DNA of 64,000 nt from a virus (IMGVR_UViG_3300010429_001251), one strand, 5' to 3'; counted from the first letter of the stretch, positions 17,136 through 46,646 are shown. Made by a program: numbers and translations. Notes: generated by a model from the letters alone, not told the origin.

Positions 17136-19514
17136 ATGGGCTTCATGCAAGTTCCTAGTAATCGTTTTACTAGGGAGGAAATAGCTAGGATGTCAAATAG
17201 AATAAATGCCAAGGCTAAACCTGTAATAACAGGAAGTCGTAAAACTGGTAATACGCTAATTGACAGAATAAACAACATTATCAGCTATGTTGATAAAGTA
17301 TTTCCGAACAAAACGGAATATGAGCTAATCAAATCCGCAGAACAACTTGAAGCCTATATTGACAAGGCTATTAGTGCAGGGCTTTACGCTTTTGACTCTG
17401 AAACTAGTAGCCTTGATCCCTTATCTTGTGACGTAGCCGGTTTTAGTTTATATGTCAAGGGGCAGAAGCCAGCTTATGTTCCTATAGGACATATAAACTA
17501 TATAACCGGCGAAATGTTAGATAATCAAATGCCCGTTGAGATAGTAAAAGAACAATTAATTCGTTTACTTGATACGCCAGTCATTATGCACAATGCTAAA
17601 TTTGATATTCGTGTTATTAGAAATAAATATGGTATAGACTTATCTCAGAGTTTATATTGGGATACAATGATTGCGGCGCATTTATTAAACGAATTTGATA
17701 GAAAAAGTTTGAAGTGGCAGTGGAATAATTATTGTTGTAAAAATCCAGATGAAAAATCTATGGACTATGATACACTATTTGACGGTCTTCCGTTTACTCA
17801 GATTCCTATACACGCTGGTTATTTATATGCTGCTAAAGATACTAAAATGACTTTTGATCTTTTCGAGTTTCAACAACCCTTTTTAGTAGAGGAAGCTGCT
17901 GAATGTAAGCGTCAAAAATTAGAAAAATTAGCTAAATTATTTCATGAAGTTGAAATGCCCTTAATAGGGGTAACGGCTGAGATGGAAGATAATGGTATTA
18001 GTTTAGATTTAAAGATAGCTGAGGAATTATCTATTGACTATCATGCTAAATTAAAAAAGGCTGAGGAGGAGTTTTATCAGGCTTGTAATATACACAGTAA
18101 ACAAATATCTGAGTTTAAATTAAAAAATCCTAAGCATGGTTTAGAGTTAAAAATAAATTATAATAGTCCTAAACAGATTGCTACTTTGATTTATGATGTG
18201 CTTAAAATAGATCCACCGGATAAAAAAGAACCGAGAGGGACTGGGGAAGAGATTCTGAAAAAAGTTAATAATCCTGTAGCTAAGTGTATATTGGAATGTA
18301 GAACAATAGCTAAATTATTAGGAACTTATATTGATAAACTTCCTGGAGAGTTACATCCTAAAGATAGTAGAATTCATGCTAACTTTAACCAAGTGGGAAC
18401 AGATACTGGTAGGTATAGTTCTGATGATCCTAATTTACAAAATATTCCTTCAAAAGATAAAAAAATTAGAACTATGTTTATTCCATCATTAAACTGTTAT
18501 TTGATCTCTTGTGACTTTTCACAACAAGAACCAAGAGTACTGGCTCATTTTAGTCAAGATGAAACTCTCATAGAAGCCTACATACAAGGTAAAGATATTT
18601 ATGCGTTTATGGGAGAAAAAGTATTTAAGGTAGCTTACGAGGATTGTTTAGAAAAACGAGCAGATGGTACTACTAACCCAGAGGGTAAAGTTCGTAGAGA
18701 TAAAATGAAGGTAATAGTTTTAGCTTTAATGTATGGTTTAGAGTTGAAATCCTTATCTGAAAGTTTAAAAGTAACTATAGATGAAGCCAGAAAAATTAAA
18801 GAATCATTCTTTAAAGCTTTCCCTAAAGTTAAAATTTGGATTGATAAGCTATTAGATGATGCTCACAAGAACGGGTATGTTGAAACAGCTTGGGGCAGAA
18901 AAAGAAGATTACCCGATATGTTATTGCCAACATATGAGTTTAGTTATATAGAAGGTAAAAGAAAAGATTTTGATCCTTTGTTTGATTCTTTAATGGAGAA
19001 CAGTGATAATATTTCAACAGAAGTGGATCCTTATTTGATAGATAAATACACAAATGCTCTAGTTAAAGCTCGTGGTTTTAAAGAAGTGAATAATATTAAA
19101 GAGTCAGCTAAAGCCGAGGGTATAAAAATTAAAGACAATTCTTTTGTAATAGGTAGAGCAGAAAGGCAGTCAAGAAATAGTCCTATTCAAGGTAGTTCAG
19201 GCGATATGGTTAAAAATGCTATGGTTCGTTTGAGCAATTTAAAAATTCAAGAAAGATGGATAGATCAAGGCAAATTAACAAATGTAGTAGAGCTTGAGGT
19301 TTATAAATTAGCTAAAGAATTTAAACAATTAGGTGGAAAAGTATTATTACAGATTCACGATGAATTAATTTGTGAGGCTCCGCAAGAACACGCAAAACGT
19401 GTTGCCGAAATAGTTTCTCAAGTTATGATTAAATCAGCATCCTTGGTAATCACTGTTCCGATGAAAAGTGATATTGAGATATTAGATCGTTGGAATGGGA
19501 GTAAGGTAGCATGA
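17136..19514 (+). CDS. Family-A DNA polymerase (Pol I-like) with a 3'-5' exonuclease domain
   Basis: Exo I (YAFDSETSSLDP); pol motif A (LISCDFSQQEPRVLAHFS), motif B (RRDKMKVIVLALMYG) and motif C (LQIHDELICEA). Confidence 0.85.
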   Translation: MGFMQVPSNRFTREEIARMSNRINAKAKPVITGSRKTGNTLIDRINNIISYVDKVFPNKTEYELIKSAEQLEAYIDKAISAGLYAFDSETSSLDPLSCDVAGFSLYVKGQKPAYVPIGHINYITGEMLDNQMPVEIVKEQLIRLLDTPVIMHNAKFDIRVIRNKYGIDLSQSLYWDTMIAAHLLNEFDRKSLKWQWNNYCCKNPDEKSMDYDTLFDGLPFTQIPIHAGYLYAAKDTKMTFDLFEFQQPFLVEEAAECKRQKLEKLAKLFHEVEMPLIGVTAEMEDNGISLDLKIAEELSIDYHAKLKKAEEEFYQACNIHSKQISEFKLKNPKHGLELKINYNSPKQIATLIYDVLKIDPPDKKEPRGTGEEILKKVNNPVAKCILECRTIAKLLGTYIDKLPGELHPKDSRIHANFNQVGTDTGRYSSDDPNLQNIPSKDKKIRTMFIPSLNCYLISCDFSQQEPRVLAHFSQDETLIEAYIQGKDIYAFMGEKVFKVAYEDCLEKRADGTTNPEGKVRRDKMKVIVLALMYGLELKSLSESLKVTIDEARKIKESFFKAFPKVKIWIDKLLDDAHKNGYVETAWGRKRRLPDMLLPTYEFSYIEGKRKDFDPLFDSLMENSDNISTEVDPYLIDKYTNALVKARGFKEVNNIKESAKAEGIKIKDNSFVIGRAERQSRNSPIQGSSGDMVKNAMVRLSNLKIQERWIDQGKLTNVVELEVYKLAKEFKQLGGKVLLQIHDELICEAPQEHAKRVAEIVSQVMIKSASLVITVPMKSDIEILDRWNGSKVA

Positions 19515-20452
19515 GTATAATTTTATATTTTGCAGGCAAACAGTGTGAAGAGGCTATTGAACATATCCGAAATAAAGGCGGGCATAAGCTATATAGTCAA
19601 TACACTGAGCGTAAAGATATTGAAGTATGGAAAGATAAATATTTAAGTCCTAATAATAATTTACTGATTGATAGCGGGGCTTTTACGGCCCACACAAAAA
19701 ATAAAGCTATTGATGTAAATGAGTATATTGGATATATAAATTCTTTTACTTCTCCTGATGTGTTTTTTGTTCAATTAGACCACATACCTGGAATATTTGG
19801 TATGCCGAGAACTAAAGAACATGTTACTGAATCTGCTGAAAAAAGTTGGGAAAATTTTATCTACATGGTTGATAAAGTAAATCGTCCAGACAGGTTGTTA
19901 CCCGTGTTTCACTTAGGAGAAGACTTAAAATATTTAGAGCGAATTCTTAATACTCAATTTAATGGAAAGTATTTAGATTATATAGGTTTTGGGGGTTTAA
20001 GTATTCGGTCAAATAGGGATAGAGATGTTCATTTAGAGAGGGCTAAGCGGGTTGTTAAGGGTAGTAAAAACCCTAATGTTAAGGTTCACGCCTTTGGTGT
20101 AACAACTTTTAAACTATTAGAGAAATACCCTTTTTATAGCTGTGATTCTTCCACTTGGATACAAAATTCAACAATGGGTTCTATAATAACCCCTAAAGGT
20201 GGATTTGTTGTAAGTGATACTAGAATTAAAGACCCAGCACACGTTTGTAATATGCCTAAAGAAGTTTATATTGCTCTTGAAAACTATGTTAATTCTTTAG
20301 GTTTTGATTTATGTAAGTTAAGAAAAGACTATAAAGAAAGATTAAAATTCGATATTGAATACTATATAAACAGAGCGAAGAAGTTTAAATACAATACAGA
20401 GTTAAGTAATAGACCAAGATTTGTAACGGAGGTACACAATGTACAAAATTAG
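19511..20452 (+). CDS. dpdA: DpdA-like DNA guanine transglycosylase (TGT superfamily) for inserting a 7-deazaguanine base into DNA
   Basis: Tgt-like catalytic motif LLIDSGAFT (compare DSGGFQ); about 310 aa; immediately followed by QueD, QueE and FolE. Confidence 0.5.
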   Translation: MSIILYFAGKQCEEAIEHIRNKGGHKLYSQYTERKDIEVWKDKYLSPNNNLLIDSGAFTAHTKNKAIDVNEYIGYINSFTSPDVFFVQLDHIPGIFGMPRTKEHVTESAEKSWENFIYMVDKVNRPDRLLPVFHLGEDLKYLERILNTQFNGKYLDYIGFGGLSIRSNRDRDVHLERAKRVVKGSKNPNVKVHAFGVTTFKLLEKYPFYSCDSSTWIQNSTMGSIITPKGGFVVSDTRIKDPAHVCNMPKEVYIALENYVNSLGFDLCKLRKDYKERLKFDIEYYINRAKKFKYNTELSNRPRFVTEVHNVQN

Positions 20453-20813
20453 AAAAACTTTTGAGGTAGCCGGGAGTCATAAATTAGATTTAAATTATGA
20501 AAGTAAGTGCCAAAATCAACATGGACATAATTGGCTCATTACTGTTGAAATATCCTCAGCATATTTAGACCAAAACGGTATGGTTATAGATTTTGTGAAA
20601 CTAAAGGATATGTTTCAAAGTAGAGTTCATAGTGTTTTAGACCACAAGCACTTAAATGAAGTGGTAGACTTTAATCCTACCGCAGAAAATTTAGCGCATT
20701 GGGTTTTAGATGCTATAAATCAAGAATTAACTATAGGTGGTTACACTCCTATAAGATGCACAAGAGTTATAGTTCAGGAATCAAACAATAACGAGGCAGA
20801 GTATTCGCTATGA
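20439..20813 (+). CDS. queD: 6-carboxy-5,6,7,8-tetrahydropterin synthase (QueD)
   Basis: CxxxHGH motif (KCQNQHGHNW); about 120 aa PTPS fold. Confidence 0.75.
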   Translation: MYKIRKTFEVAGSHKLDLNYESKCQNQHGHNWLITVEISSAYLDQNGMVIDFVKLKDMFQSRVHSVLDHKHLNEVVDFNPTAENLAHWVLDAINQELTIGGYTPIRCTRVIVQESNNNEAEYSL

Positions 20814-20947
20814 TAGAAATTAAAAAACAAGAAAACGGTAAATGGAAAGTGGAATGTGATTGTGGTTTATTGGAGTATGAAACAGAACAAGAGCCACAGG
20901 GTTGTATAAGATGTAGATACTGCGGAAGTAAGAGTTGCGGAGAATAG
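20810..20947 (+). CDS. small zinc-ribbon protein
   Basis: 45-aa ORF with CDCG...CIRCRYCGSKSCG; ATGA overlap with the queD stop. Confidence 0.3.
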   Translation: MIEIKKQENGKWKVECDCGLLEYETEQEPQGCIRCRYCGSKSCGE

Positions 20948-20948
20948 T

Positions 20949-21596
20949 ATGAAGGTTGTTGAGATTTTTAAGTCTATAGAAGGTGAAGGCAAAAGAATGG
21001 GGTATATGACCACATTCATTAGACTAGCTGGTTGCAATTTAAGATGTAGCTATTGCGATACAAAATACGCTCAAACGGGTTATGATGCAGTTGAGATGGA
21101 TCCAGCTGATATTGCAAGTAAAATAGAAACAGACTGTGTAACTGTTACCGGAGGTGAGCCTTTGATTCATCCTGATATGGAAACACTGCTTGCATATTTG
21201 ATGGAGACAAATAAGTTTACTAATATTGAAACAAACGGCAGCGTTGATTTACGTCCATTCAAACTACTCAAAGAAAAACTTAGCCGCAATAAATACTTTT
21301 TTACTATGGATGTGAAATGTCCTTCAAGTGGCATGACCGATAAAATGCTATTAGATAATTTAGAGTTATTAGATGAATTGGATGTAATTAAATTTGTTGT
21401 GGGTAGCCAAGTCGATTTAGATTATGCTAAGGGAATAATTCAAAATTATCCTATAAAAGCTGTGCCATATATTAGTCCTGTATTTGGTTTTTATCCTGCC
21501 CTTGTGGTTGATTATATTAAAGAGCATAATTTGCCAGCTGTTTTTCAGCTTCAGTTACATAAATATGTTTGGGATCCTAATAAGAGGGGTGTGTAA
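20949..21596 (+). CDS. queE: 7-carboxy-7-deazaguanine synthase (QueE, radical SAM)
   Basis: CxxxCxxC motif (CNLRCSYCDT); about 215 aa; context with queD and folE. Confidence 0.75.
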   Translation: MKVVEIFKSIEGEGKRMGYMTTFIRLAGCNLRCSYCDTKYAQTGYDAVEMDPADIASKIETDCVTVTGGEPLIHPDMETLLAYLMETNKFTNIETNGSVDLRPFKLLKEKLSRNKYFFTMDVKCPSSGMTDKMLLDNLELLDELDVIKFVVGSQVDLDYAKGIIQNYPIKAVPYISPVFGFYPALVVDYIKEHNLPAVFQLQLHKYVWDPNKRGV

Positions 21597-22567
21597 TGGG
21601 TAAGATTATTTTTGTTCCTATTGAACGAATAGATCGACGCTATAGCAATCAGTGGTTTGATTGGTTTATACAAAGTTTTGAGCGTCTTGGTAAAGAGGTA
21701 TTAACTGTAGGATCTACAGATTTAAAAGAAATAAAAGTAGGTCAATTTTTAGATGTATATGATACTAATGTCTACAAATTAGGTCAATTGCAAGAAATTA
21801 TTGAATTACTTAAAGTCCATAATGATATTGATTGTATCTTTTTTATGGACTACTGGTTCCCAGGCGTTGAGGCGTTAGCCTACATTAGAGATAATGCCCG
21901 TATGAATTTTAGAATTAAAGGCATGTTACATGCCGGAACTTATGATGATTTTGATTTTATCACTCAAAATGGATGTGGAGTATGGGGGGAACATTTTGAA
22001 AGATCTTTATTAGAAATAGCTGATGAGGTTTTTGTAGGATCTCAGCTTCATAGACAAGAGATAATTCAAAGACGGGGCGAGCATTGTAAGGTAACAGTAG
22101 TAGATTATCCTGTTTATGAGTGTACAGAGTATTTACATTTAGTAGATCGTAAAGATAATATAGTAGTTTTTCCTCATAGATTAGGTAAAGATAAACAGCC
22201 CGAACTATTCAAGGTTGTAGAGCAGATGTATAGGGAAAGATACCCTAACTCAGATGTGAAGTTTGTGAGAACTTTAGATTATAATTTAACCAAAGAAGCT
22301 TATTATACTTTGTTAGCTCAAAGCAAGGCTGTGGTAAGTTTTGCTACTCATGAGTTATTTGGAATAGCTATGTTGGAGGCTGTAAACTTAAAATGTTATC
22401 CTATAGCTCCAAATAGGTTAGCTTATAAAGAAACTCTTAAAGAGTATAAGTTATATGAAACCTTAGACGAGTGTGTAGATTTACTTAGAATGGCTATAAA
22501 CGGTAATCCTCCAATATATCCTTCAAGGTATTCAAGTAATGTAGATAATATAGTGAGGTTAATCTAA
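21596..22567 (+). CDS. GT-B fold glycosyltransferase (GT4-like)
   Basis: C-terminal E-x7-E-like motif HELFGIAMLEA characteristic of GT4 retaining glycosyltransferases. Confidence 0.4.
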   Translation: MGKIIFVPIERIDRRYSNQWFDWFIQSFERLGKEVLTVGSTDLKEIKVGQFLDVYDTNVYKLGQLQEIIELLKVHNDIDCIFFMDYWFPGVEALAYIRDNARMNFRIKGMLHAGTYDDFDFITQNGCGVWGEHFERSLLEIADEVFVGSQLHRQEIIQRRGEHCKVTVVDYPVYECTEYLHLVDRKDNIVVFPHRLGKDKQPELFKVVEQMYRERYPNSDVKFVRTLDYNLTKEAYYTLLAQSKAVVSFATHELFGIAMLEAVNLKCYPIAPNRLAYKETLKEYKLYETLDECVDLLRMAINGNPPIYPSRYSSNVDNIVRLI

Positions 22568-22909
22568 ATGAAAATGTGTATAGTAATTACTCTTCAGGTA
22601 GAAGGAATTCATAGGTGGGCAGCGTGTCCTATTCCGGAAGTAAGTTTTCTTAAAAACTTTCATAGACATATATTTCATATAAATATGGTAAAAGAGGTAT
22701 CTCACGATGATAGGGATGTGGAAATAATTCAATTAAAAAGAGCAGTTTTAAAAGATTTAAATGAAAAGTTCTACAATGAAGATGAAAATTGCCTATTTTT
22801 AGATGATTGGAGTTGTGAAAGACTGTGCGCTTACCTGATAGAAAAATTTGGGTGTATAGTGGTAAAAGTTCTAGAAGATAATGAAAATGGAGCTATGGTT
22901 AGTGTTTAA
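22568..22909 (+). CDS. hypothetical protein
   Basis: 113-aa ORF, His-rich (HRHIFH). Confidence 0.4.
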   Translation: MKMCIVITLQVEGIHRWAACPIPEVSFLKNFHRHIFHINMVKEVSHDDRDVEIIQLKRAVLKDLNEKFYNEDENCLFLDDWSCERLCAYLIEKFGCIVVKVLEDNENGAMVSV

Positions 22910-23063
22910 TCTAATTTTAAATTTTATAATAGGGCTGAGCATAGGGGTAGTATGTCGATTTATATATCTTCCCTGCCCTGCTCCAATAAACTTAGGCGGT
23001 ATTTTAGTTATTGCCGGAATATATGTTGGATACTCGTTGGTTAAAGGAGAATTTCTATGGTAA
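22881..23063 (+). CDS. small membrane protein
   Basis: 60-aa ORF with two hydrophobic helices. Confidence 0.3.
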   Translation: MKMELWLVFNLILNFIIGLSIGVVCRFIYLPCPAPINLGGILVIAGIYVGYSLVKGEFLW

Positions 23064-23635
23064 CTATAAATGATGCTCGTGAGTGTATAAAAAAGATCTT
23101 ACAATATTTAGGAGAAAATCCTGATAGGGAGGGGTTATTAAAAACTCCTGATAGGGTAGTTAAATCTTGGGATACTTTATTTGGTGGTTATTTATTAAAA
23201 CCTGAGAGTGTTTTGGAAGTAACCTTTAAAGAGTGTAGTCAGTATGATGAGATGATTATCTTAAGAGATATAGAGTTTTACTCAACCTGTGAACACCACA
23301 TGCTTCCTTTTTTTGGAAAGGTTCACGTAGCTTATCTACCAGAATTAGGGGATAGTTGTAAAGTGGTTGGCGTATCTAAGCTAGCTAGATTGGTGGATAT
23401 ACATGCCAGAAGGCTACAAATACAGGAAAGAATGACCCAAGATATAGCAATGGATTTAGAAAAAGCTATAAATGCTAGGGGTGTGGGTGTAATCGTTGAG
23501 GCTCAGCATTTTTGTATGACCTCAAGAGGAGTGCAGAAGAAACATAGTATTATGAGCACCTCTGCCATGAGGGGCGAATTTAGAACTATTCCTATGGTAA
23601 GACAAGAATTTTTACAATTAGTGAAAGGAGCTTAA
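23057..23635 (+). CDS. folE: GTP cyclohydrolase I (FolE)
   Basis: Motifs STCEHHMLPF and VEAQHFCM; about 190 aa. Confidence 0.8.
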   Translation: MVTINDARECIKKILQYLGENPDREGLLKTPDRVVKSWDTLFGGYLLKPESVLEVTFKECSQYDEMIILRDIEFYSTCEHHMLPFFGKVHVAYLPELGDSCKVVGVSKLARLVDIHARRLQIQERMTQDIAMDLEKAINARGVGVIVEAQHFCMTSRGVQKKHSIMSTSAMRGEFRTIPMVRQEFLQLVKGA

Positions 23636-25856: not shown

Positions 25857-26341
25857 TGAGTTTAGCGAAAGAATATGAAAAAATTATAAAACAAACCTTT
25901 GAGGTTGTTCCTGATGTTTCAATAATGCGTCTATACGATCCTACATCCTCATTCGCCGGAATAAAAAATATTTGTGATTATGAGCTTTACGTTCATCCTT
26001 ATTTAATATTTTTAGAGTGTAAAACATCAGCAGGAAATACTTGGAATTTTAGTAATTTATCTTCTAAACAATTAGAAGGTATGTTGGAAAAGAGTCAGAT
26101 AACCGGAATATTGGCGGGGGTTATTTTATGGTTTTATGAAAAAGATATTACCATTTTTGTTGATATTATAGAGATAAAAAGATTAATTGATGCCGGTTAT
26201 AAGTCTATAAATGCCAGTAAATTAGATGAGATTGAGCATATAGTTGTAAAGGGTCAGAAAAAAAGAACTTATTTTGAGTACGATGGTAATAATTTTAAAA
26301 CCTTGTTAAAAAGAGCCTCATATAGGAGATGGTGTAAATGA
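25856..26341 (+). CDS. small PD-(D/E)XK-like nuclease (RecU/Hjc-like resolvase candidate)
   Basis: ELYVHPYLIFLECKTS motif (E...E-C-K); paralogous core to ORF 36285..36653. Confidence 0.3.
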   Translation: MSLAKEYEKIIKQTFEVVPDVSIMRLYDPTSSFAGIKNICDYELYVHPYLIFLECKTSAGNTWNFSNLSSKQLEGMLEKSQITGILAGVILWFYEKDITIFVDIIEIKRLIDAGYKSINASKLDEIEHIVVKGQKKRTYFEYDGNNFKTLLKRASYRRWCK

Positions 26342-27378
26342 AAAAGAATATAGGCTGGGTAATGCCCAATTTTGAAACAGAAGGAAGCGGCGGTTTAAAA
26401 ACTTTGTTTGACTTTGCTAATTGTCTTTCAGGTTTATATGAGCAAGACGTTTTTGTTGCTAAAACTAAAAAAACCCAAACAGATGAGGAAGCTAGGAAAT
26501 TAATTCATAAATATTTTGGGTATATGCCTAATATAAATATTTATTGTGGGCATGAACAGATTAAAGATGACTATTATGATTTATTAATAGCTACTTGGTG
26601 TATGACTGCTTATAAAGTTAAAAACATAAGAGCTGAAAATAAGGCTTACTTTATTCAAGATTTAGAGTATATGTTTTTTCCAATGAGCGATTGGTATATG
26701 TGGGCTCAGGAGTCTTATACCTATGGGTTTAAAAATATAACTATGGGGAGATGGATAGCTAAAGAGCTTAAAAAACTATACGGCATAGATTCTCAACCTC
26801 TGGATTTTTGCGCTGATTTAGATGTCTACAAACCTTTAAATGTGGAGAGAGAAAAAGCGGTTTGTTTCTTATTTCAACCTGAAAAACATAGAAGATGTTG
26901 GGAGATGGGTTTAAAAGCTCTGCGCTATGCGAAAGACAGAATACCTGATTTAAAAGTTTATACTTATGGAAGTATTGAAGGTAGAGACATTATTAAAGAA
27001 AAGTACCCTGATTTTAAATTTTTAGGTCTTTTAGATATTAAAATGTGTAATTATCTCTATAATACTTGCCAATTAGGAATGTGTTTTAGTCCTACCAATC
27101 CAAGCAGAATTCCTTTTGAGATGTATGCGTCTGGTTTACCTGTTTTGGATTTCAATTTGGATAATAATAGGTATGATTTTTCTGAGAGTACACATAGACC
27201 GTTTGTACCAGATGAGAATACATACAATAGTTTAGGAGCTAAAATTTGTGAGTTATTATCTAATCCCGCTTATTTAGAAGTAACTGGTATAGATAATTAT
27301 AGATTTATGAGAACAAGAAAGTATGAATTAGGCTTTGACCAGTTTAGAAACGCTATAAAGGAGATCGTAGGTGTATAA
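26338..27378 (+). CDS. GT-B fold glycosyltransferase (GT4-like)
   Basis: FEMYASGLPVLDF resembles the GT4 EX7E region. Confidence 0.4.
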   Translation: MKKNIGWVMPNFETEGSGGLKTLFDFANCLSGLYEQDVFVAKTKKTQTDEEARKLIHKYFGYMPNINIYCGHEQIKDDYYDLLIATWCMTAYKVKNIRAENKAYFIQDLEYMFFPMSDWYMWAQESYTYGFKNITMGRWIAKELKKLYGIDSQPLDFCADLDVYKPLNVEREKAVCFLFQPEKHRRCWEMGLKALRYAKDRIPDLKVYTYGSIEGRDIIKEKYPDFKFLGLLDIKMCNYLYNTCQLGMCFSPTNPSRIPFEMYASGLPVLDFNLDNNRYDFSESTHRPFVPDENTYNSLGAKICELLSNPAYLEVTGIDNYRFMRTRKYELGFDQFRNAIKEIVGV

Positions 27379-29017
27379 CTTAATTGATGATTCAGATGTT
27401 ATTTTATTCGATGTATTTGATACTGCTGTACTCAGAAAGGTCAATCATCCTTCAGAGGTGTTTAACTTATTGGGTACGGGGTTTAAATTCAAGAGAACGC
27501 AAGCTGAGTTCGATGCAGCAGTAAAAAAGCCTCATTGTACTTTAGAAGATATTTATGCGGAGTTAGGACAACCAGAAAATTCGGAACGTGAGAGACTTTT
27601 TGAGATAGATTTGGCATATAGAAATCCTGAAATTTATAATTATTATAAGTATGCTTTAAATCAGGGAAAGAAGGTTGCTTTTGTTTCTGATATGTATTTA
27701 TCCCCAGCAACTATATCTACAATATTAAATAATTGTGGATACGAAGATGAACAGTTATTTGTATCTTGTGTTGAGGGGGCTAGTAAATATTTTGGAAATA
27801 TGTACGAAGTTATTAAAGATTTTTATAAAGTAAATCCTGAAAAGATGTTAATGATTGGAGATAATAAACACGGTGATTATGATATGGCTATCCGTCAGGG
27901 TTTAAAAGCTGTTCATTATGAAAGAAGTCAATCTGATGAAGATTTCTGGTATAGGTTAGGATATAACGAATTAGGTTGTATAACTTTGGCTTTTGTTCAA
28001 TGGTTACGTACCAGTTTTAGAAATCAGGGGGTACAAAAAGCTTATTTTTTCAGTAGAGAGGGTTTAATATTCAAACACGTTTATGATCTTATTAGAGAAG
28101 ATTGGGATGCTGAAAGCGAGTATTTGTATGTTTCTAGAAAAACAACTCATTTTGCAGTCATAGCCAATCACACCCCTAGAGAATTTTTAGATAAGCCTGA
28201 AAATGAGTATCTTTATTGGTTTGTAAGAAATCAACTATGTAAAAGTGGAAATGATTTTTTCAAATATATCGGCGTTGATAAAACTATTGATGATGGAATA
28301 GATTGCACAAAATTACTTCCATATCAAAGAGAACAATATAACAATCGGTTATTAAGAGAAAATATTTTAGAATTTTCAGATAGCTGTATTGGAATGTTAT
28401 TTAATATATCTAAATATTTATCCGATAAGTTTGATAATTACGATAAAGTAGCTGTAATTGATTTAGGTTGGCAAGGTTCAGTTCAAAAGGCTCTTCAGTC
28501 ATTATTAAAAGGTATGTTTGAAGATATGGAAGTATTCGGATACTACTTTGCTACATCTAGTAGAGCGGATGATAATAAGAAAATAATAAATTTAGAAGGC
28601 TTTTTAGATAAAGATTCCATTTGTTTAAATAATATCTGGTTAATTGAAAATCTATTTATGTGCAATCAAGGCAGTGTTGTAAATTATGAAAACGGCACCC
28701 CTATATTAGACAAAGAGCGTAAACCTTATACAGAATGGATTCATAAAGGGATTTTAGATTTTGTAGCAGATTATAAACATATGAGAATTGATAATACTAA
28801 GAACTTAGGTAGGTTAAAATTCAATAGGCTATTACTAAATCCAACTTCAAAAGAGGCAGAAATGCTTGGAAATATTTTGAATTATAGCGGTTCTGATGAT
28901 TTTGGTATTCCGATAGCAAAACCTGATTTGGCATCTTTAAAGAATCAGTATCAGCAGTGCGCTAATAAAAATATATTCTTATTACGGTTACTAAATATGA
29001 TATTTAAGGAGTTTTAA
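27371..29017 (+). CDS. HAD-like hydrolase-domain protein (N-terminal) with a large C-terminal domain of unknown function
   Basis: N-terminal motif I ILFDVFDTAV, later KVAFVSDMY (motif III-like) and IGDNKHGD (motif IV-like). Confidence 0.4.
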   Translation: MYNLIDDSDVILFDVFDTAVLRKVNHPSEVFNLLGTGFKFKRTQAEFDAAVKKPHCTLEDIYAELGQPENSERERLFEIDLAYRNPEIYNYYKYALNQGKKVAFVSDMYLSPATISTILNNCGYEDEQLFVSCVEGASKYFGNMYEVIKDFYKVNPEKMLMIGDNKHGDYDMAIRQGLKAVHYERSQSDEDFWYRLGYNELGCITLAFVQWLRTSFRNQGVQKAYFFSREGLIFKHVYDLIREDWDAESEYLYVSRKTTHFAVIANHTPREFLDKPENEYLYWFVRNQLCKSGNDFFKYIGVDKTIDDGIDCTKLLPYQREQYNNRLLRENILEFSDSCIGMLFNISKYLSDKFDNYDKVAVIDLGWQGSVQKALQSLLKGMFEDMEVFGYYFATSSRADDNKKIINLEGFLDKDSICLNNIWLIENLFMCNQGSVVNYENGTPILDKERKPYTEWIHKGILDFVADYKHMRIDNTKNLGRLKFNRLLLNPTSKEAEMLGNILNYSGSDDFGIPIAKPDLASLKNQYQQCANKNIFLLRLLNMIFKEF

Positions 29018-29668
29018 ATGCAATACGAAGAGTGGAAAAAATTATTAGATGAAGAAATAAGGTATTGGGAAGAAACTGTTTCAAATAATAATGGCAGATT
29101 TCATACAATTGAGCCGTGGTTTAATCCCTATTCAGAGTTACAGGATAGATACAGACCCTATGTAACCCCTGAAAGTAGAATTATTGATGTTGGTGCCGCC
29201 ATTTGTACCAAAATAGGCAAAAGACTAAATGGTAAAAAATTAAATATAACAGCTGTGGATGTGCTAGCTACAGAGTATAATGAGATACTTGCTAAAAATG
29301 ATATAATACCTCCAGTAACTACCAGAAAATGTGACTTTGAGAGTCTTGTTTCTACTTTCGGTAAAGATTCTTTTGATTTTGTACATTGTTCAAATGCTAT
29401 AGATCATTGCCATAATCCGTTAGACTCGTTGCAGCAACTATATGCAATAACAAAACCAGGCGGGTATCTTTATGTAAGAGTTCATGAAAATGAGGCGTTG
29501 AATTGTAATTATTTAGGACTTCATCAATTCAATTTCTATATACAGGACCACGGTGTTTATTATGCTGATAAAGATGCAAATACGGTGTTAATTCCATTTA
29601 CTATGCAGAAGTTAGAATTAGTAAAAAGCGGAAATATTAATTTAATAGAATTTATAATTAAGAAATAA
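29018..29668 (+). CDS. Class I SAM-dependent methyltransferase
   Basis: Motif I IIDVGAAIC and acidic motif II; Rossmann-fold spacing. Confidence 0.45.
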   Translation: MQYEEWKKLLDEEIRYWEETVSNNNGRFHTIEPWFNPYSELQDRYRPYVTPESRIIDVGAAICTKIGKRLNGKKLNITAVDVLATEYNEILAKNDIIPPVTTRKCDFESLVSTFGKDSFDFVHCSNAIDHCHNPLDSLQQLYAITKPGGYLYVRVHENEALNCNYLGLHQFNFYIQDHGVYYADKDANTVLIPFTMQKLELVKSGNINLIEFIIKK

Positions 29669-30229: not shown

Positions 30230-30481
30230 ATGGTTAACGAGTTGACAGTAGCTAATATATTAGAGCTAATTAAATATCTTGAATGTTTTATAGATCAGAA
30301 ATGTGATTGTATCGGGGTTGTTGAGGATGATAAAGTCATTATTTCAGACAGATCTAAGTACAGAATGGATGCATTTACTCAAGAGGAGTACGAATGTAAA
30401 AAAGCCTTAATTCATTTATACAGACTGTTAGAGATTGAGTTTGATCTTAAAAGGCATTTACTACAGGAGGAGTTAAAATAA
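30230..30481 (+). CDS. hypothetical protein
   Basis: 83-aa ORF with RBS GGAGGA. Confidence 0.4.
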   Translation: MVNELTVANILELIKYLECFIDQKCDCIGVVEDDKVIISDRSKYRMDAFTQEEYECKKALIHLYRLLEIEFDLKRHLLQEELK

Positions 30482-31041
30482 TGGAACATAATTGTAGTAA
30501 TTGTGGGAATAAAGGCGGGCACAGTTGTTCAGATCTATTCTGTCCCGGAGCTTATCAAGAGTGTATTAGTAATGGACATAGTAAGTGGGTTCCTAAGAAG
30601 ATACAGGTAATTGATTGGCATAAATATTTCTTCAACATTGCTTGTGATGTGTCTTTAAGATCTAATTGTATTAGAGCTAATGTAGGAGCGCTGATTGTAG
30701 ACGAACATAATCATATTAAAGCTACGGGGTATAATGGAACTCCTAGTAAAATAGAGTCCTGCAAAGAACGTGGTTTATGCTATAGAATGGAAAATAATAT
30801 AGAATCAGGAACTCGTTATGAAACTTGTAGATCAATTCACGCCGAACAAAATGCTATAATTCAAGCCGGTGAGTCTGTAGCAAGAGGTTGTAATATGTAC
30901 ATTTACGGACATAATATGGTTTGTATTTTATGCAAAAGATTTATATTACAAGCTGGTATTGAAAAAGTTTTCTTACTGAAAGCCTTTGGAGAGCCTATGC
31001 ACACTATATTTGTTAGAGAAGATTGGAATCAGGAGTTGTAA
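30481..31041 (+). CDS. dCMP (deoxycytidylate) deaminase with an N-terminal Cys-rich extension
   Basis: Zinc motifs HAEQNAI and CxxC (VCILCKRF). Confidence 0.75.
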   Translation: MEHNCSNCGNKGGHSCSDLFCPGAYQECISNGHSKWVPKKIQVIDWHKYFFNIACDVSLRSNCIRANVGALIVDEHNHIKATGYNGTPSKIESCKERGLCYRMENNIESGTRYETCRSIHAEQNAIIQAGESVARGCNMYIYGHNMVCILCKRFILQAGIEKVFLLKAFGEPMHTIFVREDWNQEL

Positions 31042-42143: not shown

Positions 42144-42423
42144 AAAGGAGTTATTGATGAGTTATTGCGGCATTCATCTAAGCTTAAACAAGAGTAAAGA
42201 AGAGCTGAATAAAGCTGTTTACAGATTGAGAAGAGCGGAGATTCAAGATTTTAATGATTGCTTAGATGAAATAGAAAAGGCAGCCCATAGACTAACGGAA
42301 GAGGCAGTTAAAGCCAAAAATATTTTAGAAAATGTTTGGGCTATACAATGTGGGGTAAACGGAGCTAATGAAAAGTTACAAGATTTAATTGTACTTATAG
42401 GAGGTAAAGATGAAAATAATTAA
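42133..42423 (+). CDS. hypothetical protein
   Basis: 96-aa ORF. Confidence 0.35.
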   Translation: MYVRKELLMSYCGIHLSLNKSKEELNKAVYRLRRAEIQDFNDCLDEIEKAAHRLTEEAVKAKNILENVWAIQCGVNGANEKLQDLIVLIGGKDENN

Positions 42424-43039
42424 ACCGAGAGTGGAGGTTATCAACTTAATTGAACCTAAAAAGATGATGCAGCATATTGAAAAGGTAGGAAGGCTATGTT
42501 GGAAGTCTGAAGAAAAAATAACAGACGAGTCTTATAAAAAATTTATAGAGATGATTTTAAAAAGAGAACACGAAGCGGTTATTGAGCATTCTTTTATAAC
42601 AGCTATTTTTGTTTGCGATAGGGGAGTTACTCACGAAATAGTAAGACATAGACTCTTCAGTTATGCTCAAGAGTCTACTCGTTACTGTAACTATTCTAAT
42701 GATAAATTTGGAAAAGAATTGACTTTCATAGATCCTTGTTTTTGGAATGATACGGATAATACTTATTTGTATCTAACTTGGAAGGACTCAATGGAGAAGG
42801 CCGAAAGAGATTATTTAGATCTAATTGAACACGGAGCGACTCCTCAAGAAGCTCGTTCAGTTCTTCCAAATTCATTAAAAACTGAAATAGCAGTATCCGG
42901 TAATTTTAGAGAATGGCGTCACTTTTTTAAATTAAGATGCGCTTTAGCTGCTCATCCTCAAATGCGAGAGGTAGCTAGTATGGCTTACAATCAGATGTTT
43001 GAATTGTACCCAGAAGTATTTAGTGGATTGGATGGGTAA
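42410..43039 (+). CDS. thyX: Flavin-dependent thymidylate synthase (ThyX)
   Basis: ThyX signature RHRxxxxxxxSxRY (RHRLFSYAQESTRY). Confidence 0.85.
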   Translation: MKIIKPRVEVINLIEPKKMMQHIEKVGRLCWKSEEKITDESYKKFIEMILKREHEAVIEHSFITAIFVCDRGVTHEIVRHRLFSYAQESTRYCNYSNDKFGKELTFIDPCFWNDTDNTYLYLTWKDSMEKAERDYLDLIEHGATPQEARSVLPNSLKTEIAVSGNFREWRHFFKLRCALAAHPQMREVASMAYNQMFELYPEVFSGLDG

Positions 43040-43485
43040 TGGTAGATATTGATCCTAATCGTAAATGTTTTACTAGTAAAGCCGTTTGTGACCTTTTAAA
43101 CATTAGCAGAAAAAATATAGTTAAGTGGGAAAATCTAAAAATAATTCCCTGTACTAAAGAAGGGTTTCAACGCCGGTTTAGTTTAAATGATATAAAACAT
43201 ATTGAGTGGATCATATACATGAAAAGAGAGCTTAAACTATCTTCTCAAAGCATAGCTATTATAGCTCATCTAATGTACAAGGTGAATGTAAGTCCTGATA
43301 ATTTAAAAGATCATACTATATTAGTTCTTAAAGAATTTGAAAGAAGCGGTAGAGTAGAAAAAAGCAAAAGACGCAAAAAGCATGCTCCTGTGGAGCTAGA
43401 AAAGATAGCCATAGAAGCTGCTAATGCGTTAAAACAAATTAGTGTAGTATCTAAAGCAACTGCAGAAGAGTGGGACAATGAGTAA
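43039..43485 (+). CDS. HTH DNA-binding protein (MerR/excisionase-like)
   Basis: N-terminal HTH pattern FTSKAVCDLLNISRKNIVKW. Confidence 0.35.
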   Translation: MVDIDPNRKCFTSKAVCDLLNISRKNIVKWENLKIIPCTKEGFQRRFSLNDIKHIEWIIYMKRELKLSSQSIAIIAHLMYKVNVSPDNLKDHTILVLKEFERSGRVEKSKRRKKHAPVELEKIAIEAANALKQISVVSKATAEEWDNE

Positions 43486-43623
43486 TTATTCTAAATTTTG
43501 TAAACGATGTGGACGTCCTCTTAAAAATGAGGAGAGTAGACGTACAGGGTTTGGGAATGTTTGTCATCAAAAAATGTCAAATAATAAATTAGTTAGAAAT
43601 GTATTTATAAAGGAGTCTTAAAT
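43483..43623 (+). CDS. small zinc-ribbon protein
   Basis: About 46 aa with CKRCGRP...CHQ; coordinates approximate. Confidence 0.2.
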
Positions 43624-44170
43624 GTTACAATCAGAATTAGATAAGTATCAAAAAATTTTAGAAGTACACGGTGATAGCTATGCAGGTTATAACCATGCTA
43701 AACATCATTATAATTTTATTATACCTTTTTTGGATGTAGAGAAGTCTTTAGTAGTAGCAGATTTAGGATGTGGTTGTGGTTATTTCCCTAACTGGATAAA
43801 ATGTACATTTCCTCAACATACGGTATACGGCATTGAGCCTGTTTTTGCTCCTTTTGGAGATAAATCTTACGGGGTTGACTATCTTAAAGGAGATAGTACG
43901 AATATTCCTCTTGAAAAAGTAGACATATTATTTAGTTTTGATGTTATGGAGCATATACACCCAGATGATTTAGAACAGTCATTACAAGAAATCTATAGAG
44001 TTACTAAGTGTTTTGTAGCTAAAATCTCCACAGTGCCCTCAGCGGTTGGTGGTGTACATGGCGAAGATCTTCATCCTATTGTACAGCCTTTGGACTGGTG
44101 GGTAGTGCAGCTTAAAAGATTTTTTGAAAATGTGTCTATTCAGGGTGAGATGATAGTATGTCAAGAATAA
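43622..44170 (+). CDS. Class I SAM-dependent methyltransferase
   Basis: Motif I VADLGCGCGYF and acidic motif LFSFDVMEH. Confidence 0.6.
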   Translation: MLQSELDKYQKILEVHGDSYAGYNHAKHHYNFIIPFLDVEKSLVVADLGCGCGYFPNWIKCTFPQHTVYGIEPVFAPFGDKSYGVDYLKGDSTNIPLEKVDILFSFDVMEHIHPDDLEQSLQEIYRVTKCFVAKISTVPSAVGGVHGEDLHPIVQPLDWWVVQLKRFFENVSIQGEMIVCQE

Positions 44171-44451
44171 TACCAGAGGGAAGAGTTGAAATACCTTTCA
44201 CCTCTCTGGCTGATTTTATGCTTGAAAATCCAGGACAATGTAGATGTGAATGGTGCGGAAGACTGGTACACTGCTTAACTAAACATCATTTCCCTATTTC
44301 TAAAAATAATGGAGGAAGAAAAACCGTTAATATTTGCGGAGCGTGTCACAATGATTTCCATTATTTAGAACATAGGGGAGTAGATAAAGTAAAATATATA
44401 GAATGGGTTGTACAGCAAGATAGAAAACCTAAAAAGAAAGTGAAAAGATAA
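44158..44451 (+). CDS. HNH endonuclease
   Basis: CEWCG...HH...N...N.CGACHNDFH HNH motif. Confidence 0.55.
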   Translation: MSRIIPEGRVEIPFTSLADFMLENPGQCRCEWCGRLVHCLTKHHFPISKNNGGRKTVNICGACHNDFHYLEHRGVDKVKYIEWVVQQDRKPKKKVKR

Positions 44452-44996
44452 TGGACTTACATAATCCTAAATTTAGCAAAAAAGGATTCATTCAAGTTTA
44501 TACAGGTAGAGGCAAGGGTAAAACCACTGCCTCTATGGGTTTAGTTACACGAGCATTAGGTAGAGGTTGGAAGGTTTTTGTAATGCAGTTTTGCAAGGTA
44601 AAAAACCACACGGGAGAATACCAATATTTAGGGTTAGAAAACCCTTGTAACTTAGCTTATAGTTCTTGTGGACTCCCTCATTACCCTAATAAATTAAATG
44701 TAACTGAAAAAGATAAACAAGCCTGTAGAGATGGGTGGGGCTTGGTATTGAAAAGACATAAACAATTCGATTTGATCGTTTTAGATGAATTAAATATAGC
44801 TATTGATTTTGAGTTTTTAACCACGGAAGAGGTCTTAGAGTTTTTAAATAATAAGCCCCAAAACTTAGAAATAGTTATAACTGGAAGAAATATTAGACCT
44901 GAAATATTAGAAGCAGCTCATTTAGTTACTGAAATGGTTCCCTTGAAGCATTATATTGATATTGGAGTCCAAGCAAGGGAGGGAATAGAATATTGA
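44451..44996 (+). CDS. ATP:cob(I)alamin adenosyltransferase-like protein (CobA/CobO/BtuR family)
   Basis: GFIQVYTGRGKGKTTASMGLVTRALGRGWKVFVMQFCK closely parallels the CobA P-loop region (IVYTGNGKGKTTAA.G...RA.G.G..V.VVQF.K). Confidence 0.55.
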   Translation: MDLHNPKFSKKGFIQVYTGRGKGKTTASMGLVTRALGRGWKVFVMQFCKVKNHTGEYQYLGLENPCNLAYSSCGLPHYPNKLNVTEKDKQACRDGWGLVLKRHKQFDLIVLDELNIAIDFEFLTTEEVLEFLNNKPQNLEIVITGRNIRPEILEAAHLVTEMVPLKHYIDIGVQAREGIEY

Positions 44997-45480: not shown

Positions 45481-46215
45481 ATGGGTAGAACGAAAAAGAA
45501 ACCTAATGATGACGATGATGTAATAGTTCCAGAGGTAATAACTCCAATGCCTTTGGCTAATTCTTTTGTATGTAATTATACTGATTATAAAGAAGACGAT
45601 TTTATTTGTCTATGCGCTGTTAGTGGAAGCTCAGATAAAACTATAGAGAATTATTTACAATGTTTTGATCCGCCAGATGGGGCTGATGAAGAGCAAATTA
45701 AAGGACTAGCCCATGCTTTAAAATTAAAATTATATACTCAAATTCAAGAAAAAAGAAAAGAGTTACGAGCTCAGGGCTTATTAAAAGAAATGGAAACTAC
45801 AGGGTGTAGCCTTAGACAATTAGCTTTTATAGAACATTATTTATTTAGTAGTAATAAGAGTACTAGAATTATAGATGCCTATAGATTAGCTTATGGTGGA
45901 GAGGGTGTTCCTCCTCATATGTTAAAAGTACAAGCATATAAGGTATTAAACTGCGCCACGGTTAAAACAGCTATTGAAAAATATAGAAAGCAAATGGAAG
46001 AAGACTTAGGTTTATCTTTTGCAGAGTATTTATTAGAACTAGATCAAAATAGAGAACAAGCCAGAAGATTTGGACAAGTTAGTGCAATGAATGCTGCTAC
46101 AGTAGCTAAGGGTAGAGCTATGGGCTATGATAAAATTAATATCAAGAATGAAGATACGGAACGTACTATTGAAGATTTATTGCAAGAAGTGAAGAATTCA
46201 AAGGAAGCAAAGTAA
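45481..46215 (+). CDS. terS: Terminase small subunit (Terminase_2-like, HTH)
   Basis: Central AFIEHYLFSSNKSTRIIDAYRLAYG...KVQAYKVLNCATVKTAIEKYRKQMEE matches the small-terminase family pattern. Confidence 0.5.
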   Translation: MGRTKKKPNDDDDVIVPEVITPMPLANSFVCNYTDYKEDDFICLCAVSGSSDKTIENYLQCFDPPDGADEEQIKGLAHALKLKLYTQIQEKRKELRAQGLLKEMETTGCSLRQLAFIEHYLFSSNKSTRIIDAYRLAYGGEGVPPHMLKVQAYKVLNCATVKTAIEKYRKQMEEDLGLSFAEYLLELDQNREQARRFGQVSAMNAATVAKGRAMGYDKINIKNEDTERTIEDLLQEVKNSKEAK

Positions 46216-46287
46216 TTCACACCTAGCAGCAGCGTTTTTAAAGGGTTTATTTTATGGGTCAGGTCATTTAATACCTGCTCAAAAAAT

Positions 46288-46316
46288 AAACCCCTTAGTT
46301 ATGGGGTTTTATATTT
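46288..46316 (+). terminator. Rho-independent terminator (AAACCCC-ttagttat-GGGGTTT plus a T-tract) ending the plus-strand block
   Basis: 7-bp stem followed by TTTTATATTT in a convergent intergenic region. Confidence 0.55.
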
Positions 46317-46350
46317 AATAATAGTTAATTATACCCAATTTACAGGGGTA

Positions 46351-46430
46351 TTTTTAAGGGGTTTAAGGGTTAGGGGTGTATTAAGTACCTTGAAAACTTA
46401 AAACCCCGTTAAAAACGATTTTAACAGGGT
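46351..46430. repeat. G4/C4 inverted-repeat element, copy A (TTTTAAGGGGTTTAAGGGTTAGGGGTG...AAACCCCGTTAAAAACG)
   Basis: About 80-90 nt element; a directly repeated homologue lies at 58705-58772 and related copies at 8080-8160 and 41320-41450. Confidence 0.5.
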
Positions 46431-46454
46431 TTTAAAGGGTTTATATTTTAGTGA

Positions 46455-46646
46455 TTAATCACAAATACATCTGCAGGTTCTTAAGTCATCCTTATTTACT
46501 TGTTGAATCTCAGGATTTTGTATTTGTTCGTTTGTTTGGCGAGTTTGTATTAATGTAGGTAAGGTTAATGCTGCCACTACGCCTATTACAGCCAAAGTCA
46601 CTAAAACTTCCGCCATGGTGAATCCTTTATTCTTTCGCATCAACAA
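46455..46646 (-). CDS. Prepilin-like small protein (type IV pilin/pseudopilin N-terminal class III signal)
   Basis: KGFTMAEVLVTLAVIGVVAAL matches the G|F-T-x-x-E prepilin cleavage/methylation motif followed by a hydrophobic helix. Confidence 0.45.
   Translation of the reverse strand: MLMRKNKGFTMAEVLVTLAVIGVVAALTLPTLIQTRQTNEQIQNPEIQQVNKDDLRTCRCICD

Follow-up and report, generated by a model that had tools for sequence, protein, structure and literature searches.

The described phage with this gene set is Cellulophaga phage phiST, which carries FolE, QueD, QueE and the QueD-like T-fold protein DpdL (CGPG_00067) together with the transglycosylase DpdA3 (CGPG_00065), without QueC, and in whose DNA all G is replaced by 7-deazaguanine (DG; dDG in DNA), with zero 7-carboxy-7-deazaguanine (CDG; dCDG in DNA) (PMC10516641). 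DpdL is recognised by the signature LxxxHRHxF and was proposed to be a CDG decarboxylase (Cui et al. 2023, PMC10516641). Full substitution with 7-deazaguanine is also described for another phage, Vibrio phage VP1 (bioRxiv 2025.10.29.685425). Streptococcus phage Dp-1 and Bacillus phage Flasso have preQ1-type modules, and Dp-1 DNA contains dPreQ1 (Hutinet et al. 2019, PMC6884629). Here we describe a gene cluster at positions 19511-23635 of a viral sequence of 64,000 nucleotides (IMGVR_UViG_3300010429_001251), the whole of which is referred to as the window. This cluster is likely to be a QueC-independent operon of the DpdL type that gives a DG-derived DNA modification. The DpdL route is already known; new is a glycosyltransferase, referred to as GT1, which is a near-constant and previously undescribed partner of DpdL. 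The module thus joins a QueC-less pathway of the DpdL type to a DpdA resembling that of Dp-1, and adds a conserved glycosyltransferase not described before.

DpdL and the absence of QueC

One gene of the cluster encodes a protein of 113 amino acids (aa) that, by its sequence, is DpdL. Its motif LKNFHRHIF fits LxxxHRHxF and stands in place of the CxxxHGH of QueD, with the catalytic Cys changed to Leu. Used as a tblastn query, the protein aligned over 99% of its length with phiST CGPG_00067 at 33.9% identity (E 8e-10; 37% in a MAFFT alignment), and it also matched Acidovorax phage ACP17. No Pfam match was obtained for DpdL by hmmscan, and neither DpdL nor DpdA had a match in Pfam, in NCBIfam or by phmmer against the PDB. 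The relationship to QueD is nevertheless visible at the profile level (hhalign probability 92.5%, E 4.7e-7), and H15, H32, E84 and E103 are invariant across the aligned DpdL and QueD sequences. All 23 DpdL family members carry LxxxHRHx[F/I], 22 ending in F and one in I, and each is accompanied by at least one of FolE, QueD, QueE and DpdA/DpdA3 (20-22 loci each). No QueC was detected by tblastn in the DpdL loci tested, and DpdL was present with every QueC-less cluster examined. In Chryseobacterium phage MA9V-3 (L004:7452-8333), DpdL forms the C-terminal part of a 293-aa protein whose N-terminal extension of about 180 aa has no Pfam match; in phiST a MazG-like gene lies directly upstream of DpdL, so that the MA9V-3 protein is possibly a fusion.

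When two QueC and two QueF proteins of phages were used as tblastn queries, neither gene was found in the window, with no QueC match better than E 0.28, and a six-frame scan for SGGxDS found no such motif in the window or in about 18 kb of flanking sequence. The flanks, 8.1 kb upstream and 9.7 kb downstream, were taken from near-identical contigs (99.98-99.99%) and likewise gave no QueC or QueF by the same searches, bringing the sequence covered to about 82 kb. The upstream flank runs into tail genes and the downstream flank into small early genes. The window belongs to ENA ERZ795055 NODE_112 (101,121 bp), of which the inspected part leaves about 19 kb, comprising about 16 kb of presumed structural genes and a further 3.4 kb. 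We attribute the absence of QueC to a different, already described branch of the pathway, that of DpdL, rather than to a gap.

A preliminary description had recognised FolE, QueD, QueE and a DpdA-like protein beside the DNA polymerase, had seen no QueC, and had read the cluster as a phage module that replaces G in the phage's own DNA by a 7-deazaguanine derivative as an anti-restriction measure. We judge this part of the interpretation to be right, and the gene set goes well beyond what chance would give. All four genes lie on the plus strand where it had placed them, with their motifs or families confirmed; the DNA polymerase A (PolA) stop codon overlaps the DpdA start; and the tblastn and motif searches bear out the lack of QueC in the window and extend it to both flanks. 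Missed at that stage were DpdL itself and two small open reading frames (ORFs) that close the remaining gaps (Table 1). On the reason for the missing QueC and on the product we judge the description to be wrong: it had offered dCDG, or preQ0 made with a QueC from outside the window or from the host, as possible products. Because the cluster holds DpdL, and because dDG was measured in phiST, dDG is the base to be expected here, and dCDG and preQ0 become less likely.

The genes at 19511-23635 are co-directional, with overlapping or abutting stops and starts, and directly follow PolA. No terminator-like site was found on the plus strand between 16 and 31 kb, which is consistent with one long transcription unit, and promoter-like sites were no more frequent than expected by chance. 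Neither Rfam families, the preQ1 riboswitch included, nor tRNAs were found in the window. The first of the small ORFs encodes a 45-aa Cys-rich protein (MIEIKKQENGKWKVECDCGLLEYETEQEPQGCIRCRYCGSKSCGE) whose start overlaps the QueD stop (ATGA); it is missing from the close relative L006, where QueD abuts QueE. The second, a 60-aa hydrophobic ORF, occupies the same position in L006 with 71% amino-acid identity. In Dp-1 the QueT transporter gene sits within the cluster, between FolE and DpdA, and may be compared with it.

The window shares with Dp-1 and Flasso the order PolA, DpdA, DnaN, Cas4-like nuclease and RecU, and their proteins are 36-40% (DpdA) and 42-43% (FolE) identical to those of the window; PolA is 39-42% identical to its counterparts in Clostridium phages phiCTP1 and FA88, Flasso and Dp-1. 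Dp-1 and Flasso, however, have QueC and QueF, and Dp-1 also QueT, where the window has DpdL and GT1. Given this synteny with QueC/QueF replaced, it appears that QueC/QueF, the preQ1 genes of the Dp-1/Flasso-like relatives, gave way in this lineage to the DpdL and GT1 pair of unrelated phages. With phiST the window shares the lack of QueC, a DpdL 34-37% identical with LxxxHRHxF in both, and a location in the replication region; it differs in having a Dp-1-like DpdA instead of DpdA3 and an extra GT4-like glycosyltransferase, and the MazG-like and ATPase genes of phiST have no counterpart in its operon. Megablast of the 4.1-kb region against GenBank phages gave no match, so that its kinship with cultured phages is no more than distant.

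Table 1. Genes of the probable DpdL-type operon and other features of the window
Feature	Position	Strand	Size and evidence
DNA polymerase A	17136..19514	+	792-aa ORF; stop overlaps DpdA start
DpdA-type DNA-guanine transglycosylase, Dp-1/Flasso-like clade	19511..20452	+	313 aa; phrog_887 and predicted structure
QueD (CPH4 synthase)	20439..20813	+	PF01242 E 8e-32, 110 bits against a cut-off of 22.4; CQNQHGH = CxxxHGH
Cys-rich zinc-ribbon-like ORF, coding status uncertain	20810..20947	+	45 aa; bridges the QueD-QueE gap
QueE (radical-SAM CDG synthase)	20949..21596	+	Radical_SAM 50.6 bits against 29.5; phrog_2076 'QueE-like' E 1.1e-38; CNLRCSYC
GT1, GT-B/GT4-like glycosyltransferase	21596..22567	+	323 aa; conserved partner of DpdL
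DpdL, QueD-like T-fold, proposed CDG decarboxylase	22568..22909	+	113 aa; phrog_17812 E 1e-19; LKNFHRHIF
Hydrophobic ORF, probably two transmembrane helices	22881..23063	+	60 aa; overlaps DpdL and FolE
FolE (GTP cyclohydrolase I)	23057..23635	+	PF01227 E 1e-69, 234 bits; STCEHH motif
GT2, WsaF-like glycosyltransferase	26338-27378		346 aa; after RecU
HAD-like protein	27371-29017		548 aa
Class-I methyltransferase	29018-29668		216 aa
dCMP deaminase	30481-31041		
ThyX	42410-43039		
MerR-type regulator	43039-43485		
Second SAM methyltransferase	43622-44170		
ATP:corrinoid adenosyltransferase (BtuR/CobO)	44451-44996		E 8e-54
ThiF/E1-like domain protein	53367-55025	-	552 aa; Pfam annotation of the identical gene in L030

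GT1, a glycosyltransferase linked to DpdL

The predicted structure of GT1 (pLDDT 95.8) has the GT-B fold with two Rossmann domains, and H112, R195, K200 and the EX7E pair E253/E261 (HELFGIAMLE) are invariant in 60 homologues. We take the EX7E and the Arg/Lys residues, the latter nucleotide-diphosphate-binding, to be equivalent to those of PimA and BshA. GT1 scores below the Pfam gathering thresholds (Glycos_transf_1, 22.9 against 26.4 bits; Glyco_transf_4, 21.9 against 28.5) while many of its homologues have a precomputed PF00534 match, so it is a divergent member of the retaining GT-B/GT4-like glycosyltransferases. A GT1 profile gave only marginal or spurious matches to PDB sequences, and the best viral structural match was the ACP17 glycosyltransferase.

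Relatives of GT1 were found on at least 596 IMG/VR stretches. Within 6 kb on either side of the best 80 of these loci, DpdL was present in 77, FolE in 62, QueE in 43 and QueC in 1. Starting from DpdL, 15 of the 19 DpdL loci of IMG/VR had a GT1 homologue, usually adjacent and often overlapping. The two genes also occur together, adjacent or a few kb apart, in 18 GenBank phage records of at least six lineages, their matches coinciding in the PA5oct-like jumbo phages, ACP17, Phosso, BCSR5, BUCT-ZZ01 and X1/BUDD, and the pair was found on two further metagenomic contigs. The linkage is thus found in phages whose backbones differ greatly, the stop and start codons of the genes often overlapping, and GT1 homologues were seen solely on phage-like contigs. 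No paper on the association was found in the open-access literature. The earlier suggestion that the glycosyltransferase at this position might act in the pathway is thus strongly supported by comparative genomics.

The same adjacent pair as in the window is found in ACP17 and in the Pseudomonas jumbo phage PA5oct, in the order DpdA, GT1, DpdL within uncharacterised DpdA-GT1-DpdL-QueE operons. These phages have myovirus or jumbo backbones and Gram-negative hosts, and their DpdAs, of 424 and 540 aa, are divergent and far longer than that of the window. At several restriction sites that contain G, the DNA of PA5oct is resistant (PMC12191111). In the GT1/DpdL locus L036 (7115-8038 and 11428-13998), a radical-SAM/SPASM enzyme lies directly upstream of GT1, and a nearby gene encodes a UDG-PolA fusion polymerase. 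Polymerases of this type have reportedly been tied, in recent work, to phages with hypermodified, glycosylated thymidines.

Sister phages provide a further comparison. Between L024/L019, which have GT1, and L017/L023, which lack it, DpdL is 71%, FolE 70% and the ParB-like neighbour 61% identical, but DpdA only 26%, and the difference amounts to a cassette swap between DpdL and the ParB-like gene. These identities indicate that the block of GT1 and DpdA was exchanged as a unit. The swap is compatible with GT1 altering the substrate of DpdA, and hitch-hiking of adjacent genes fits equally well. The DpdAs of GT1-less loci form one clade, and the GT1-linked DpdAs fall into several others.

Action of GT1 on a deazapurine would have a chemical precedent in HuiG of huimycin biosynthesis, a GT-B/GT4-type enzyme (PF13439) that glycosylates a free 7-deazaguanine-derived base from a nucleotide-sugar. 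The likeness drawn here is one of enzyme type and chemistry, and HuiG differs in belonging to actinomycete secondary metabolism, in having O-methylated preQ0 as its acceptor and in having no link to DNA. As regards the alpha-/beta-glucosyltransferase system of T4, no hydroxymethyl-pyrimidine pathway with a ThyA-like hydroxymethylase to supply the acceptor was found in the window, ThyX and dCMP deaminase being the only such replication-region proteins, and a T4-like acceptor for the glycosyltransferases was rejected on these grounds.

DpdA, the proposed pathway and the inserted base

The 313-aa DpdA belongs to phrog_887 (E 1.7e-56, PHROGs), and its AlphaFold model, built from 52 homologues (pLDDT 93.7), has the TIM-barrel fold of the TGT type, with the DNA enzyme DpdA as best structural match; the TGT-like identity proposed for it in the preliminary description is thereby confirmed at the level of fold. 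In a profile alignment to 7ui4, D54, F58, D90, H134 and D212 of the window protein correspond to D95, F99, D130, H181 and D256 of Salmonella DpdA. In the Salmonella enzyme, D95 and D256 are the catalytic Asp residues, general acid/base and nucleophile, and D130 and H181 read the Watson-Crick edge (PMC10164549). Across the 52 homologues D54, D90 and D212 do not vary, and at least 90% keep H134. The protein is therefore predicted to be a base-exchange enzyme acting on DNA, and indirect support comes from the 36%-identical DpdA of Dp-1, a phage with dPreQ1 in its DNA.

The nearest relatives of the window DpdA are those of Flasso (40% identity) and Dp-1 (36%) and of metagenomic phages. It is unrelated to phiST DpdA3 (CGPG_00065; BLASTP E = 30) and does not belong to the DpdA3 subfamily, members of which (phiST, Campylobacter phages) replace G completely; among the loci, phiST DpdA3 matched only MA9V-3 by tblastn. 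The loop touching the 7-substituent reads FGGLSIRS in the window DpdA, where Dp-1 and Flasso have ISPAND and other clade members GGRHG or GGTVG; of these others, the two looked up have QueC and/or a YhhQ-type Vut_1 by DpdA. Most of the other DpdL loci have a gene for a ParB_N-domain protein beside DpdA, upstream in L009, L011, L014, L016, L018 and L021 and downstream in L008, L010, L013, L015, L017, L019 and L024, an arrangement resembling the bacterial pair of DpdA and the ParB-like ATPase DpdB. No ParB_N gene adjoins the Dp-1-like DpdA of the window.

We propose the following pathway. The operon would be expressed together with the replication genes, and FolE, QueD and QueE would convert GTP into CDG, which is the established role of these three enzymes. 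DpdL, a T-fold protein without the catalytic cysteine, would strip the carboxyl group from CDG to give DG, as proposed in the literature. The Dp-1-like DpdA would exchange G in double-stranded phage DNA for the deazapurine by the two-aspartate mechanism of the TGT type, as its fold and conserved catalytic residues suggest. GT1, translationally coupled between QueE and DpdL, might move a sugar from a host nucleotide-sugar onto the deazaguanine, either while this is still a free base or once it is present in DNA as dDG; genomic linkage and intact catalytic motifs are what point to this step. The outcome would be restriction-resistant phage DNA with dDG or glycosylated dDG. We put forward glycosylation of the deazaguanine by GT1 as a tentative proposal, and the wider one, that GT1 is a DG-glycosylating extension of the DpdL pathway widespread on at least 596 IMG/VR contigs and in PA5oct-like phages, ACP17, Phosso and BUCT-ZZ01, is possible and held with similar reserve. 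The acidity of GT1 (pI 5.6; family median 6.0) and its invariant N-domain residues, which are rich in aromatic and acidic side chains, lean weakly towards the free base as acceptor.

Several points weigh against this reading. DpdL occurs without GT1 in phiST, MA9V-3, Faecalibacterium phage Roos, L015, L017, L023 and L026, and in a neighbour-joining tree the DpdLs of these loci are scattered between those linked to GT1. GT1 would thus be an add-on, not needed to make or insert DG; a role as obligatory cofactor for DG formation was considered and rejected for the same reasons. Its acidic character is a weak argument against a direct contact with DNA. Since DG lacks a hydroxyl group, N2, O6 and C7 are the positions left for a sugar, and we know of no such sugar-bearing deazaguanine base in DNA. 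For the GT1-positive phages, DNA chemistry is predicted from genes. About 19 kb of the source contig, the structural-gene region and the 3.4 kb mentioned above, lies beyond the inspected sequence. One GT1 locus, L059, has QueC and no detected DpdL. The decarboxylase activity of DpdL is a proposal from the literature and has never been reconstituted: no dDG was obtained when dpdL and dpdA from phiST or ACP17 were co-expressed in E. coli, and those who named DpdL suspected missing enzymes (PMC10516641). The ACP17 test was made without the glycosyltransferase.

The alternative that survives best is that the phage carries plain dDG, as phiST does, with GT1 glycosylating a different target, such as some other base of the DNA, a protein or a glycan of the host, or serving as a non-catalytic partner. 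The GT1-less DpdL and DpdA loci just listed, the lack of an obvious O-acceptor on DG and the acidity of GT1 all favour it. We nevertheless regard it as somewhat unlikely, in view of the linkage of GT1 to DpdL (77 of the best 80 loci) across very different backbones, the restriction of its homologues to phage-like contigs, its invariant catalytic residues and the lack of another acceptor pathway in the window; the exchange of GT1 and DpdA between L017/L023 and L024/L019 also suggests coupling to DpdA.

It is improbable that the inserted base is preQ0 or a derivative, made with a QueC from the host or from uninspected sequence, with DpdL and GT1 doing something else. The closest DpdA relatives (Dp-1, Flasso, L007, L033, L034) do work with QueC, QueF or a YhhQ-type transporter, part of the contig is unseen, and GT1 is paired with QueC in L059 (168-6213; FolE, GT1, a 431-aa radical-SAM-like protein with CDRKCPYC, DpdA, QueC, a small phosphoribosyltransferase-like protein and two ParB_N proteins). 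Against this, the 82 kb covered contain no QueC and the unseen upstream part continues the tail/structural module. In other members of the DpdA clade the gene beside DpdA is still QueC or YhhQ, and here that spot holds QueD, QueE, GT1 and DpdL. Only a single one of the best 80 GT1 loci has QueC, and the substrate loop of the window DpdA is unlike those of the preQ0 and preQ1 types.

We consider it quite improbable that the pathway stops at CDG for want of QueC and that DpdA inserts CDG, giving dCDG in DNA. FolE, QueD and QueE suffice for CDG, in an E. coli queC mutant the DpdA2 of Vibrio phage VH7D did insert CDG, though very inefficiently, and Sulfolobus virus STSV-2 has dCDG (PMC10516641). 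The operon, however, contains a bona fide DpdL, the companion of every QueC-less cluster examined; phiST, the measured phage with this gene set, has no dCDG at all; and the one virus with dCDG has other genes (DpdA and ArcS2). Finally, action of the DpdA-like enzyme on tRNA instead of DNA, to reprogramme host or phage queuosine, is very improbable despite the TGT fold common to tRNA enzymes and the PHROG/GenBank label 'queuine tRNA-ribosyltransferase', given that its best structural match is a DNA enzyme, that a homologue-bearing phage, Dp-1, has dPreQ1 in DNA (PMC6884629), and that the gene is embedded in a replication module in a window devoid of tRNAs.

Other genes of the window and implications

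The preliminary description had also suggested that a second cassette, encoding GT2, a HAD-like protein and a methyltransferase (Table 1), elaborates the base. We found no support for this beyond proximity. The close relative L006 has the cassette as well, but none of the other DpdL and GT1 loci does, and among GenBank phages its relatives are negligible or lacking. The cassette resembles bacterial surface-polysaccharide genes: the HAD protein has its homologues on Firmicutes chromosomes, some fused to RgpF, and one that was inspected lies in a Wzy/Wzx polysaccharide locus. A role in the deazaguanine pathway was rejected for lack of evidence; it may represent cargo modifying the host surface or another glycan rather than DNA chemistry.

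Elsewhere in the window, an ATP:corrinoid adenosyltransferase gene represents unusual auxiliary metabolism and adjoins genes for a second SAM methyltransferase, a MerR-type regulator and ThyX. A protein with a ThiF/E1-like domain is encoded on the minus strand, and in L030, which has the identical gene, BubE-family genes lie just past the position of the window end. At about 46,200-46,600, GC and AT skews change sign and gene orientation turns from plus to minus, which indicates two convergent transcription blocks.

7-Deazaguanine DNA modification is a major counter-defence of phages, and bacterial glycosylases and nucleases target such bases. GT1, with intact catalytic motifs, accompanies DpdL in most DpdL phages, among them Pseudomonas jumbo phages that can be cultured and are of interest for therapy. 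How dDG is made without QueC is understood in part, and GT1 is a candidate for its missing component or for the source of a new hypermodified base. If GT1 does glycosylate DG, no purine-type base with a sugar would have been seen in any DNA before; the sugar could be attached at N2, as in huimycin, or at C7, and this would explain why ACP17 dpdL and dpdA alone gave no dDG and why PA5oct DNA behaves as 'hypermodified' towards END nucleases. The GT1-positive and GT1-negative sister phages offer natural controls, and phiST DNA a ready dDG substrate. For the present phage, the question of QueC gives way to a specific prediction of DNA chemistry.

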